DNA from: Nitrospirota bacterium
GTDB taxonomy: Bacteria > Nitrospirota > Thermodesulfovibrionia > UBA6902
Assembly: GCA_003354025.1 (NCBI GenBank)
Contig: PIVU01000002.1
Span: 8,004 to 72,003, forward strand
DNA length: 64,000 nucleotides
Reading direction: 5' to 3'
Shown in pieces: positions 9,833-15,446 of this stretch; position 1 is the stretch's first letter; each line of letters starts with the position of its first letter. The notes under the pieces were generated by a model that ran no database searches, was not told the origin of the DNA, and was given only the letters and a program-made list of their open reading frames with translations. A program made the position numbers and the translations under genes.

Positions 9833-10570
9833 TTATATCAATATGAAATCCTTATTTTTATACCCCCTGATCCTTTTGCATACTTCATACCCTTCACGGC
9901 TTCCTTCATCATTCGTGTTACCTTCAATAGTGTAAAAACAGTCTTCTTCAGTTTTCAAAACTATCCCCGTGTGTGTCCAGTCTGTTGAAGTCTTTCTGAC
10001 TAAAAAAAACGATCCAGGAGTAATCTGGGACTTATCTGTTATCTGAGATTCTTTCAAAAATAATCCCCTCCCCTTAGCATCAAGTGCAAGATGATCACAT
10101 GAAAAGGTTGTTTTAACAGGCTGCGTACTATTGGTACTGTTGCACGCCTGACCCAGAATAAAACAGGAGAACCCCGCGCACCAGGGCCAGGTCGGACCTT
10201 CCTCCCCTTTCATATAAAGCCGTACCCATGGCCCCTTGTTTTGCCCCCCCACTTCCCTTGGATGCCATTTCAAATGTTTCTGTGCATAGGAAACGACCAT
10301 TTTGCCGAGAGATTTGCCGACGCCTGTCAGCGGGTCAAGGGAATCAGTCATCGGCTTTACCATTGTCTGGAATGTCTTTTTATCAACAATCCCGTTATCC
10401 TTCAACTGTTTCTTTGATTGAAAGTCCCTAACGGCGCGATCAGTAGCAGGACCAAAGTCACCGTCAATCACAAGATTGTGGCCGTGGAGGCAAAGCCATT
10501 CCTGAATATGTTTTACCTTATTGCCCTTCATTCCTTTTTTATAATTTTTATCAAGCTCCAAGCCTTTCAT
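9833..10570 (-). CDS. Peptidoglycan-binding (PG_binding_1) + CHAP/NlpC-P60-like cell-wall hydrolase, no signal peptide
   Basis: N-terminal IDGDFGPATDRAVRDFQ is the PG_binding_1 signature. C-terminal Cys (WCAGF) ... His (HTGIV) ... TIEGNT resembles CHAP/amidase hydrolases. Hydrophilic N-terminus. Confidence 0.55.
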   Translation of the reverse strand: MKGLELDKNYKKGMKGNKVKHIQEWLCLHGHNLVIDGDFGPATDRAVRDFQSKKQLKDNGIVDKKTFQTMVKPMTDSLDPLTGVGKSLGKMVVSYAQKHLKWHPREVGGQNKGPWVRLYMKGEEGPTWPWCAGFSCFILGQACNSTNSTQPVKTTFSCDHLALDAKGRGLFLKESQITDKSQITPGSFFLVRKTSTDWTHTGIVLKTEEDCFYTIEGNTNDEGSREGYEVCKRIRGYKNKDFILI

Positions 10571-10606
10571 TGTTCCTCCTTATATACATACGAGTATCCG
10601 GCTCAA

Positions 10607-12998: not shown

Positions 12999-13154
12999 AT
13001 TTCAATCTCCTTTCGCATTCGGACCTTGAGGACCGGTCCCCTGTACAAGTTTTCTGCTTCTGTGAAAGGGATGCTCAGCCATGAACGTCCCTTTCACAAT
13101 TGTTATGCATTATGCGTAACCTGTCCGGCCATGCAGGGCTTATGGCACACTGCA

Positions 13155-15446
13155 TCAGGAATCAGGATGAATAACTACCCGCCAGTTGTTTAATTTGCCC
13201 ACATCCTGACCGGCCCGATCTGATACGCGAAGTTGCCAGTCTCCGACGATCGATTGCCCTGCAAGGTTACCCAGTGCCGGCGTGGTACTCGGCGAAAAGG
13301 TCTTAACTACATCATCGGTACTCCCGCCAGTCTCGTCGTGTATAATCACGTCGGTCCCCGCCGGAGAGCGGAAGCTGATCCGAAGATCTCCAATCCACGT
13401 ATGGGTAATGTCCAAAGACAATTCCACGCTGCCTACGTTGCCGGGAGCATTTGTGGACAGACTTCGCTGGACGCCAACGGGGTCCTTGTCAGGGATATGA
13501 ATACCGGGCGACTCTTCCATTACGACCACTCCCTGGGGTTGCGCCACAGCGTCAAACTCCAGAGCCCAGCGATTGAGCGTACCGACATCAACTGAAGCCA
13601 TATCCTGTACAAGGAGTCGCCATTCACCCTTCGTGCTGTGACCGTGCATTGTAGCCAGCGCCTGAACGTCCGATTCATCAATCGTTCGTTGAATGTTGTC
13701 GGCGCTGCCTCCCTGGAAACGTTTATGCAGAATAATGGCTTCACCCCAGGGCGCCAGCAAGGTAACACGCAGATCACCCTGGTAGGTATGGGAAATGTCA
13801 AGTAACACCTGGACGCCGGCGATGATCGCATCCTGATCAAGTAGAATAGTGTCGGTAATTCCGTCGGCCCGGTTGTCCGGGATGATAAGACCTGGAGAGG
13901 ATTCCCCTTTAACAGTCTGCGCAACGCTGTCATCCTGAGACAGCTTGGTTTTGAAGCTCACTGCTGCATCCGGCTCCGCGATCTCAAAAATGTCCAGGTT
14001 GGAGGCAGTTCCATCCCACCATTTACTGCTGGGATTTGTTGAATCGGCAAATCGTTTGTTCCCCTGCCCATATAGGTCCGTTGAATCACCGTAGTGATAG
14101 GGAGAGGATTCCAGACGAAAATCCCCGTCCGCCTGTTCCAGCGAAAGTTCGTAGTGGCTATTGGGCGTCATTTGTTCGTTGCTGTTGTTGCCGTCTTCGT
14201 CTACGTGCCAAATGGCAACCCCCTCGTCAGGCAGGGACTGGTCACGGCCGCTCTTCAACCGGTTTTCAACGATGAAGTACTCACTGGTGTTTTTGGCATA
14301 TATGGCAAAATCGTTTTCACCTGCAGTGAGCGTAATCTGCTGGTTGTGCTGAATCGGCTTCACGCTTTTGGCCCATCCCGAGAGTCTCTTCAGGTAGGCC
14401 GAAATGTGAGTCGGGTTCTTTTCGCTGATGTTGCCACCGGCGCACATGAGACAATATGCACCTGTGCCTGCCGACTCGCTGCCGTAATCGTACAAATCCG
14501 GGTAGTCGCACAGCATGTGCCCATTCTCATGACAGAATGTTCCGAGCGTGAGCTGGTGGCTCATGTCGGTGAACTGATAATCAAAAGCTGACTTGCCGGG
14601 CGCCAGCTCAACAGGCGTCCCCAGATGCCAGGCGTGGGGCCACAAACCTTCGGCCCAGTTGTTGACTACTTCTCCGGCATAGTAAACATTCATGGCATAT
14701 ACGAAACCGCTGCTGTCAGCTGTCAATTGCGTAAAGTCAAAGTTATTTGCTTTCATGTGCGTGAGTGCCTCAACAATCAGCTGCCGGGCACGGATACCTT
14801 GCGGGATAGCGGGGTCGGTATAGTGCGACTTGGGATGTTGTGCCCGATAATACTCGGCAACGATATTCGTATAAAGGCAGCGGCCGATAGAGTTGTCGTT
14901 GAAATAATCGTAGACGGACCCGTTGTTGCCAAAGCCTGAATACCCTTGTTCATTGCAAAATTTATCCACTTCATCGCGGGCAATCGTTCCTTGTTCGTCA
15001 GGAAAATCGATTAGGAGACATAACCCTACAAAATCTCCGACTGTTGTGCGTTGTGGCGGGGCCATGAGGGGACCTCCCAACGTACGTGCCGCTCTGGCCA
15101 GACTCTTGCGCTGCTCACGTCGTTGATCGCAGCGCCTGCCGCCCATGCGCAATGCTCCCTCCATTCCTCGAGCTCGAGCTGCTTCGCGGTTAATCCTCAA
15201 GCCCGGTTGAGCTGCTGCCCGCATACCATCCAGATTCCCCTGGGAACCTGGCGCCGGCTCCAGCATAGTTCCATCGCTGGATACCTGGGCCACTTCAAAG
15301 AACCCCGTGCTGGGATTCTTAACAACAGTATAGCCATCCAGCGTTTCGAATACAGCGTAGTGCTGGTCGCCCCAACCGCGCAACTCGATTTTACTGCCAT
15401 CGGGTTGAGTAAATTTGAATGTCTTGCTGATAAAAGGTGTAGCCAT
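13155..15446 (-). CDS. M6 (immune-inhibitor-A)-like zinc metalloprotease with two C-terminal proprotein-convertase P-domains. 130-aa non-signal N-terminal extension.
   Basis: Zinc motif HENGHMLCDYPDLYDYG (HExxH..D.Y). LLIDFPDEQG strand as in M6. Two P-domain-like repeats (GDLRVTLLAPWGE..., GDLRISFRSPAGTDVIIHDETGG...WQLRVSD). Gene GC is markedly higher than its neighbours. Confidence 0.6.
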   Translation of the reverse strand: MATPFISKTFKFTQPDGSKIELRGWGDQHYAVFETLDGYTVVKNPSTGFFEVAQVSSDGTMLEPAPGSQGNLDGMRAAAQPGLRINREAARARGMEGALRMGGRRCDQRREQRKSLARAARTLGGPLMAPPQRTTVGDFVGLCLLIDFPDEQGTIARDEVDKFCNEQGYSGFGNNGSVYDYFNDNSIGRCLYTNIVAEYYRAQHPKSHYTDPAIPQGIRARQLIVEALTHMKANNFDFTQLTADSSGFVYAMNVYYAGEVVNNWAEGLWPHAWHLGTPVELAPGKSAFDYQFTDMSHQLTLGTFCHENGHMLCDYPDLYDYGSESAGTGAYCLMCAGGNISEKNPTHISAYLKRLSGWAKSVKPIQHNQQITLTAGENDFAIYAKNTSEYFIVENRLKSGRDQSLPDEGVAIWHVDEDGNNSNEQMTPNSHYELSLEQADGDFRLESSPYHYGDSTDLYGQGNKRFADSTNPSSKWWDGTASNLDIFEIAEPDAAVSFKTKLSQDDSVAQTVKGESSPGLIIPDNRADGITDTILLDQDAIIAGVQVLLDISHTYQGDLRVTLLAPWGEAIILHKRFQGGSADNIQRTIDESDVQALATMHGHSTKGEWRLLVQDMASVDVGTLNRWALEFDAVAQPQGVVVMEESPGIHIPDKDPVGVQRSLSTNAPGNVGSVELSLDITHTWIGDLRISFRSPAGTDVIIHDETGGSTDDVVKTFSPSTTPALGNLAGQSIVGDWQLRVSDRAGQDVGKLNNWRVVIHPDS

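Follow-up and report, generated by a model that had tools for sequence, protein, structure and literature searches.

Do hydrolase genes that follow the genes of a contractile injection system (CIS) encode cargo of the particle, a means of releasing it, or neither? This question is raised by a 64-kb stretch of contig PIVU01000002.1 from a Nitrospirota bacterium (the window), in which four genes for enzymes without export leaders lie downstream of a CIS locus. All coordinates given here are window positions, and the genes discussed are on the minus strand unless stated. An earlier note, made from the letters of this DNA, had proposed either a multi-enzyme payload or a lysis module. Our answer, to which we give a probability of about 0.4, is a composite one. 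The four genes would belong to a mosaic accessory ('cloud') segment and not to one dedicated operon; a peptidoglycan hydrolase (PGH) would drive release of the particles, and the other enzymes would be co-released with them or act as effectors. As the note had described, all four open reading frames (ORFs) are co-directional and lie downstream of the CIS:

13155..15446, minus strand: M6-type Zn metalloprotease (M6), 763 amino acids (aa), leaderless
12164..13000, minus strand: papain-type C1 cysteine peptidase (C1), 278 aa, leaderless
10607..12112, minus strand: ComEC-type hydrolase of the metallo-beta-lactamase fold (MBL), 501 aa, leaderless, soluble
9833..10570, minus strand: PGH, endolysin-type peptidoglycan hydrolase, 245 aa, leaderless

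The gene starts used match the gene calls of the source assembly. For C1, a TTG start at 13048 was rejected and replaced by the ATG at 13000 (278 aa), as in the assembly call. The domain identities proposed in the earlier note were borne out by Pfam and NCBIfam matches and by intact catalytic motifs; the CHAP domain of PGH is below the Pfam cutoff and is supported otherwise, as described below.

The link between M6 and the genes of extracellular CIS (eCIS) carries most of the effector side of this reading. In the literature DUF4157 serves to mark eCIS toxins and what lies beside them (PMC8213781). In a survey of about 37 near-full-length M6 loci, with one genome per species, M6 adjoined DUF4157 and/or CIS genes in 5 of the ~37. 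The probability of at least 5 such adjacencies in 37 is ~1e-4, even if a CIS is assumed in every genome. The gene orders of the five loci are as follows:

L008: M6, C1 (25% identical to the window C1), sigma-54 activator, then Pvc16, sheath and tubes
L013 (short contig): eCIS_core, M6
L029: amidohydrolase, M6, PG_binding_1+CHAP, sigma-54 activator and, further on, eCIS_core
L031 (clear CIS): Baseplate_J, DUF6519, eCIS_core, M6, S8 subtilase with P-domain
L034: AAA, eCIS_core, PG_binding_1+M15_4, M6, eCIS_core

M6 directly adjoins the DUF4157 gene in L013, L031 and L034, and three genes lie between the two in the window. With the window counted, a second protease or a PG hydrolase stands beside M6 in 5/6 CIS-linked loci, the exception being the short contig L013. 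The PG hydrolases adjoining M6 in L029 (CHAP type) and L034 (M15_4 type) support the composite reading. Homologs of the window PGH and C1 were searched for by tblastn in the ~32 solitary M6 loci, and none was found. All-against-all clustering of the M6 neighbourhoods gave no conserved partner gene. The N-terminus of M6, a folded beta domain in the model, is identical in register, residue for residue, in CIS-adjacent and solitary copies. A CIS-specific N-terminal extension was looked for and not found, and since linked and solitary copies share this N-terminus, M6 bears no CIS-specific loading tag. The linkage of the M6/P-domain family to DUF4157/eCIS genes, quantified in this way, appears to be new and is offered as a lead; no paper turned up in a full-text literature search that combined 'contractile injection' and 'immune inhibitor A'.

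M6 itself matches Pfam P_proprotein twice (6e-38), Peptidase_M6 (PF05547) at 31.4 bits (cutoff 22) and NCBIfam TIGR03296 at 159 bits (cutoff 110.8). Its zinc site, HENGH (306) ... PDLYDYG (316), is intact and is invariant in 53 homologs. An N-terminal beta domain is followed by an Arg-rich helical segment, the catalytic domain and a pair of C-terminal P-domains. No sequence-level match was found in the Protein Data Bank. The best fold match of the AlphaFold2 model (pLDDT 77) is the B. anthracis InhA2 zymogen 4YU6, and the P-domains match furin/ASP. Homologs number more than 2,400. Identity is 61-100% among the best 120, most of which are 758-777 aa long; these 120 belong to Gammaproteobacteria, Planctomycetota, Nitrospirota, Campylobacterota, Verrucomicrobiota, Desulfobacterota, Burkholderiales and others. 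Phage genomes gave a single distant match.

PGH, which carries the release side, matches PG_binding_1 at 48.8 bits and CHAP at 17 bits (E 0.0086), the latter below the Pfam cutoff. The CHAP/NlpC-like domain is supported by PHROG endolysin matches to both domains of PGH, by the motifs PWCAGF, WTHTGIV and EGNTN, and by a homolog (30% identity) in which CHAP is matched at 2.3e-9. PGH is 45.6% identical over its full length to p76 of Myxococcus phage Mx4, annotated 'putative endolysin endopeptidase', and its catalytic half resembles endolysins of Streptomyces phages. Homologs number 2,387 at E <= 1e-5, and the best 120 of them are 60-100% identical and ~245 aa long, a pattern like that of M6. By these matches, PGH is an endolysin-type enzyme, and of the steps in our reading this one has the best backing from homology. 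No ORF of at least 20 aa with an ATG start flanks it.

C1 matches Peptidase_C1 (PF00112) at 58 bits, with the triad Cys65 (GSCTAHA), His212 (GGHAV) and Asn236 (NSWG) and an N-terminal GWxxDxPDYRD motif. Its best solved relative is the cysteine protease 3OIS (7.5e-31). The closest of 16,999 representative hits are solitary proteins of 270-340 aa or C-terminal domains of leaderless proteins of 700-1100 aa. Ten large relatives were scanned, all of them leaderless: one to three PG_binding_1 domains occur in 6/10 and Amidohydro_2 in 3/10. Because fusion to PG_binding_1 is frequent among these large relatives, their architecture suggests that the C1 subfamily of the window acts at the cell wall. The relatives examined include P0368, P0369, P0372, P0373, P0375 and P0376, some of which are leaderless proteins of 850-1100 aa. 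In these a long insert with one to three PG_binding_1 domains stands between an N-terminal GWxPDYPDxRDY motif and the C-terminal catalytic domain; others are fused to Amidohydro_2.

MBL matches Lactamase_B at 30.5 bits and carries the motifs H132-x-D-x-D-H137 and CHHG (339); its active-site residues are invariant among homologs. The protein has an N-terminal small beta-barrel, an MBL core and a C-terminal beta domain. For its AlphaFold2 model (pLDDT 89, pTM 0.88), the best fold match is the beta-lactamase-like domain of ComEC, 9IC4 (target TM 0.77), followed by the nucleases RNase J and CPSF73, and solved ComEC MBL domains are matched by sequence as well. On sequence and modelled fold, MBL is a probable nuclease. 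Homologs 54-79% identical, mostly of 491-510 aa, occur in many phyla. An assignment as MBL effector of a defence system was rejected, the matches being partial and lower than the cutoffs (Avs1a 65 bits against 420, 6A-MBL 49 against 220). Lamassu LmuA, AVAST Avs1a and the DRT RT-associated MBL (RTasMBL) share the MBL core and metal motifs with it and were rejected too; their partners are absent, with no LmuB, STAND NTPase or RT gene in the window. PADLOC gave no match for M6, C1, PGH or the two membrane proteins described below. Two ComEC-type MBL domains lie within 5 kb, in the stand-alone MBL gene and in comEC, one gene apart. The C-terminal MBL domain of comEC is the nearest solved relative of the stand-alone protein (~32% identity over ~80 aa), and the closeness of the two genes is probably a coincidence.

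Leaders were assessed by Kyte-Doolittle hydropathy heuristics on the N-termini. The most hydrophobic 10-residue stretch within the first 45 residues has a Kyte-Doolittle mean of at most 1.23 in the four hydrolases versus 2.8-3.6 in the membrane proteins TM228 and TM113, and no transmembrane (TM) segment was found in M6, C1, MBL or PGH. By this measure the N-termini are hydrophilic, in agreement with the view that none of the four carries a Sec/Tat signal. M6, MBL and PGH have no hidden upstream start, because each ORF begins at the first start codon after a stop. Hydropathy summed over the first 35 aa is -35.7 for C1, -22.5 for PGH, -17.7 for M6 and -3.5 for MBL, values that do not discriminate, since structural CIS proteins give similar ones. 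The earlier note had called a leaderless M6 protease odd unless it left the cell by another route. Of the M6 homologs, 117 of 120 are leaderless as well, and a hydrophobic N-terminus occurs in 3/120 homologs of M6, 0/120 of MBL, 0/120 of PGH and 3/150 of C1. Leader absence is therefore family-wide, not an oddity of the locus that needs a CIS to explain it.

The surroundings of the four genes bear on whether they form an operon with the CIS. The other features of the region are the following:

22257..44764, minus strand: CIS structural block with DUF6519, P2_I, Baseplate_J, gp25, VgrG-like spike, tube proteins, AAA ATPase, Pvc16, gp19 tube and sheath
37340-38671, minus strand: AAA ATPase of the CIS (Pvc15-like)
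17522..21847, minus strand: eCIS_core (DUF4157) protein, 1441 aa (PF13699, 78 bits), the last recognisable eCIS marker gene
16806..17522, minus strand: TPR protein, whose gene start and the DUF4157 stop overlap
15961..16647, minus strand: TM228, membrane-anchored, with one N-terminal TM segment and a beta-rich soluble domain
15642..15983, minus strand: TM113, small two-TM protein; overlaps the end of TM228
15472..15493, no strand: palindrome TGACGTAAGATTATTTACGTCA, perfect (8-6-8), 26 bp upstream of the M6 start codon
7148-9607, minus strand: comEC, a true ComEC and the next gene after PGH, with housekeeping genes beyond

By its gene content the upstream locus is a genuine CIS with a complete structural gene set. 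Read 5' to 3' on the minus strand, the order is CIS block, DUF4157, TPR, TM228, TM113, M6, C1, MBL, PGH, comEC. Counted from the eCIS_core gene, M6, C1, MBL and PGH thus occupy places 4 to 7, each on the strand of the CIS. The earlier note had placed them after the TPR gene; strand and direction stand, and the placement needs correction insofar as TM228, TM113 and gaps of 158 and 195 bp intervene. These gaps separate TPR from TM228 (158 bp, 16648-16805) and TM113 from M6 (195 bp, 15447-15641, with the palindrome inside). Farther on, M6 and C1 are 154 bp apart (13001-13154), C1 and MBL 51 bp (12113-12163), MBL and PGH 36 bp (10571-10606), and PGH and comEC 225 bp (9608-9832). A strong ribosome-binding site of its own precedes each hydrolase gene. 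GC content at third codon positions (GC3) is 0.576 in M6, 0.42-0.46 in C1, MBL and PGH, and 0.33-0.38 in TM228, TM113 and TPR; the GC of the TM228 gene is low, at 0.37. The region is a mosaic, as judged from the GC3 shift of M6 against its neighbours and from the gaps of 154-195 bp around M6 as opposed to 36-51 bp within C1-MBL-PGH. Because of the same GC3 difference from C1, MBL and PGH, and because its close homologs are so broadly spread over taxa, the M6 gene looks recently acquired by horizontal transfer, and it looks to be under strong constraint. The TGACGTAAGATTATTTACGTCA palindrome occurs in perfect form just once in the window (expectation 0.15 with up to 3 mismatches); it may serve as an operator or be a scar left by transfer of the M6 gene.

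Beyond the TPR gene, related loci differ. A metagenome scan with the window DUF4157 protein gave 8 loci; among them L070, the closest CIS relative, breaks off within the DUF4157 gene. In L068, L071 and L072 the gene for a giant DUF4157 protein has a TPR gene immediately behind it, and the two make up a conserved pair; what comes after TPR differs and may be a transposase, a methyltransferase/glycosyltransferase or a TIR-FGE-sulfatase fusion. L075 has a caspase C14 gene downstream of DUF4157. Since the region is a mosaic, and since conservation of the CIS in related loci stops at the DUF4157-TPR pair, with variable genes beyond, we read the four hydrolase genes as accessory 'cloud' genes.

Scans for transcription signals were made as well. 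Sigma-70 promoter matches were at background (14 sites, 14.9 expected), as was a search for the sigma-54 consensus. Terminator-like matches were above background (15, with 7.4 expected), and none lies on the minus strand within the gaps between genes of the four-gene region. A sigma-54-like -24/-12 element, TGGCATTCTTATTGCT (45880-45895, minus strand, 1 mismatch), lies upstream of a NusG/RfaH-like gene (44856-45371) and the sheath gene. Adjoining is a gene for a sigma-54 activator without a receiver domain (46125-47543); its homologs, 41-46% identical, adjoin M6 homologs in L008, L029 and L032.

TM228 has a soluble domain of ~185 aa after its TM segment, and TM113 has a charged loop of ~50 residues. 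Neither has a match in Pfam, PHROG, PADLOC or NCBIfam, and TM113 is a weak candidate for a holin-like protein. A TM228 homolog (23% identity, pairwise E 3e-12) is encoded in 'bacterium I07' (L076, 4251-4766) directly downstream of a 71%-identical MBL homolog, which in turn follows a DUF6765 gene; the arrangement hints that TM228 travels with these hydrolase families.

Arrays of the same families also occur away from CIS genes. In a Thermodesulfobacteriota metagenome-assembled genome (GCA_034190195; L077, 8353-20436), a co-directional hydrolase array interleaved with small membrane proteins encodes a PGH homolog (63%), a DUF676/PGAP1 lipase-like protein, DUF6765, homologs of C1 (53-55%) and MBL (30%), and a PG_binding/M15_4 hydrolase. 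Multihaem cytochromes lie upstream, and no CIS gene was found in the 10-12 kb covered. On plasmid pD4M1C of Paroceanicella profunda (L081, 5044-14703), MBL, an S8 protease, a patatin phospholipase and a 610-aa PG_binding+CHAP protein are encoded; the gene for the last is followed by genes for a 54-aa and then a 541-aa TM protein, with no CIS in the flank. PGH homologs are directly followed by small TM proteins in both arrays, a point in favour of the composite reading; the membrane proteins of the arrays are small single-pass and multi-pass ones. Such recurrent arrays of leaderless hydrolases and small membrane proteins seem to be new, and we regard them as a lead. The window also encodes, on the plus strand beyond the pil gene cluster, a PGAP1-like alpha/beta hydrolase (60945-61913) and an RlpA-like lytic transglycosylase (DPBB + SPOR; 59298-60008). 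The PGAP1-like protein has no detectable similarity to the lipase-like member of the Thermodesulfobacteriota array.

Taken together, the composite reading would divide the segment into the two membrane-protein genes of low GC, a leaderless M6/P-domain protease gene that arrived by recent transfer and whose family recurs beside DUF4157/eCIS genes, and a tight C1-MBL-PGH unit drawn from a widespread group of leaderless hydrolases that may be aimed at cell wall and DNA. The particles of eCIS need lysis of the producer for their exit (PMC8213781), lysis cassettes are known beside tailocins/pyocins and Afp (PMC12961389), and for the type 10 secretion system (T10SS) of Yersinia entomophaga and Serratia, lysis has been found to release leaderless toxins in Yersinia (PMC10847048). 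By analogy, the four enzymes would be made in the cytoplasm of CIS-producing cells, with substrates reachable only after a breach of the inner membrane. PGH, like canonical endolysins, would be harmless in the cytoplasm until that breach and would then cleave the producer's own peptidoglycan. The cell would lyse and the assembled particles would be freed, as in pyocin/Afp lysis cassettes or T10SS; the proteases and the nuclease would be released along with them or serve as effectors. What we observed are the identities of the genes, their intact active sites and missing leaders, how the families are distributed and cluster, and the linkage of M6 to DUF4157; we infer co-expression with the CIS, lysis by PGH, any part that TM228/TM113 may play in permeabilising the membrane, and the targets of M6, C1 and MBL. 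M6, and perhaps C1, are the best candidates for effectors because of their linkage to DUF4157 in gene neighbourhoods; the role of MBL in the account is uncertain. No immunity-like ORF was found between or after the four hydrolase genes, which fits enzymes made in cells fated to lyse.

Several results weigh against this composite reading. The lysis cassette suggested in the earlier note keeps its endolysin-type PGH, and loses force elsewhere: TM228 and TM113 gave no holin match in Pfam or PHROGs and are separated from PGH by ~5 kb and three genes (a holin from a family not yet described is possible), and no lipoprotein or embedded ORF in 9.6-16.8 kb is a candidate spanin. IMG/VR scans with M6 and with PGH gave no close relatives. 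The promoter and terminator scans yielded no evidence tying the four genes to the CIS transcript. To include a protease and a nuclease in an account of lysis is speculative, as neither is needed for it. Finally, M6 homologs are mostly solitary, and homologs of M6 (72-84% identical), MBL (four loci, 56-71%) and PGH (63-66%) are found with no CIS within 10 kb; the objection that the earlier note itself had named, conservation of these genes in relatives that lack the CIS locus, thus holds in part, with the limit that 10-kb flanks were covered and a CIS elsewhere in those genomes is possible. Most homologs of PGH, MBL and M6 being of this kind, the families would have a function that needs no adjacent CIS.

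Two other explanations compete with the composite reading on much the same evidence. The four hydrolases, or at least M6, C1 and PGH, may be eCIS-associated toxins (EATs) loaded by the Pvc15-like AAA ATPase encoded at the locus and injected into targets, probably bacteria given the peptidoglycan-directed enzymes. We hold this payload explanation to be unlikely, though it draws on the known habit of EATs to lie at the operon's 3' end, on the same strand and near DUF4157 genes (PMC8213781, PMC11297309), a habit that the four genes, a few genes from DUF4157, share. It also draws on the strong enrichment of the M6 family beside DUF4157 (M6 is flanked by two such genes in L034 and directly follows eCIS_core in L031) and on the M6-C1 pair beside the CIS in L008. 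Further, 68 predicted eCIS toxins carry PG-binding domains and a PG-hydrolase toxin, EAT10, has been validated (PMC8213781, PMC11297309). EATs are described as having a hydrophilic, disordered N-terminal signal within the first ~35-50 aa; the N-termini here are hydrophilic, and the C1 value of -35.7 is close to the -36.9 of Pdp1, likewise summed over its first 35 residues (PMC11297309); against this, the N-terminus of MBL is weakly hydrophilic (-3.5), and several structural CIS proteins are as hydrophilic as the candidates. One objection comes from M6 itself, whose CIS-adjacent and solitary copies have the same N-terminus and hence show no CIS-specific packaging signal. Leader absence throughout the families, the lack of an adjacent CIS for most homologs in all families examined, the full endolysin architecture of PGH with no immunity gene, and the membrane-protein genes, long gaps and composition shifts between the four genes and the CIS operon count against it too. 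In support of the payload idea of the earlier note stand position and the DUF4157 enrichment of M6.

The genes may also be neighbours of the CIS by chance: C1-MBL-PGH, possibly with M6, would be an independent island of leaderless hydrolases between the CIS and comEC, with a role of its own such as autolysis, programmed cell death, defence or holin-type export of exoenzymes. This we think improbable, somewhat more so than a payload. It would explain the CIS-free arrays of the same families in L077 and L081, the unrelated genes that follow the DUF4157-TPR pair in related loci, and the solitary homologs of these families, which often lie in variable regions amid transposases, integrases and defence genes (Zorya, TIR, a HamA-domain gene, a STAND NTPase gene). 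The partial matches of MBL to LmuA, Avs1a and RTasMBL point the same way; the partner genes of those systems, however, are absent. Chance does not readily account for an adjacency of M6 to DUF4157/CIS genes far above expectation, for a PG hydrolase or second protease that accompanies M6 in CIS-linked loci and in none of the solitary ones searched with the window PGH and C1, or for four genes co-directional with the CIS with no strong terminator found between. Less likely than either is that the four genes come from a toolkit of leaderless enzymes, so far undescribed and widely transferred, that clusters with small membrane proteins of its own and is recruited repeatedly by CIS. Its members might be endolysin-like PG hydrolases, PG-binding papain-like peptidases, P-domain M6/S8 proteases, ComEC-type MBL nucleases and lipases, and it might serve Sec-independent, holin-like export or programmed self-lysis, which a CIS would use for release or as ammunition.

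For the exit route of most eCIS particles, and for their cargo in environmental bacteria, this locus offers a concrete test set: an endolysin-type enzyme and three more leaderless hydrolases beside a DUF4157/TPR module. If PGH drives release, the lysis-cassette model would extend from tailocins and Afp to the eCIS of an uncultured bacterium. Injection of the enzymes, if it occurs, would make them cell-wall effectors against bacteria. The arrays in which leaderless hydrolases and small membrane proteins are combined, known here from several phyla, may indicate an unrecognised route of export or autolysis, again as a lead only.

Toxin genes at the 3' end of eCIS operons near DUF4157, eCIS toxins with PG-binding domains, and lysis cassettes beside CIS-like particles have all been described already, and the window can be set beside these and other known systems. 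MBL shares its core and metal motifs with ComEC/Rec2; it differs in being soluble and stand-alone, with added beta domains at both termini and neither a TM segment nor a competence channel domain (PF03772), and it scores 79 on TIGR00361 against a cutoff of 190. M6 resembles the InhA/PrtV peptidases of family M6 in its HExxH...D zinc site, in scores above the TIGR03296 and PF05547 cutoffs and in a multi-domain fold like that of the InhA2 zymogen, to which it is ~13-14% identical in structural alignment; it and its family differ in having no signal peptide, and it has two C-terminal proprotein-convertase P-domains. With the EATs (PMC8213781, PMC11297309) the four hydrolases have in common a location 3' of the last core genes, co-directional and near DUF4157, enzymatic domains of the peptidase, nuclease and PG hydrolase kinds, no Sec signal and no immunity genes. 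Unlike EATs, none of the four carries DUF4157 or directly adjoins a DUF4157 gene in the window, and their families are mostly without an adjacent CIS, highly conserved and not fast-evolving, with no CIS-specific N-terminus. From T10SS and the tailocin/Afp lysis cassettes, which consist of holin, endolysin, and spanin or endopeptidase (PMC12961389, PMC10847048), the window differs in having no recognisable holin or spanin, membrane proteins that are not beside PGH, and a PGH whose catalytic domain is CHAP-like, not a lysozyme/muramidase, and whose family is not found in phage contigs at close range. What it shares with them is a leaderless endolysin-type PGH beside a particle that is assembled in the cytoplasm and needs lysis, small membrane proteins in the same gene string, and other leaderless enzymes that could exit together with the particle.

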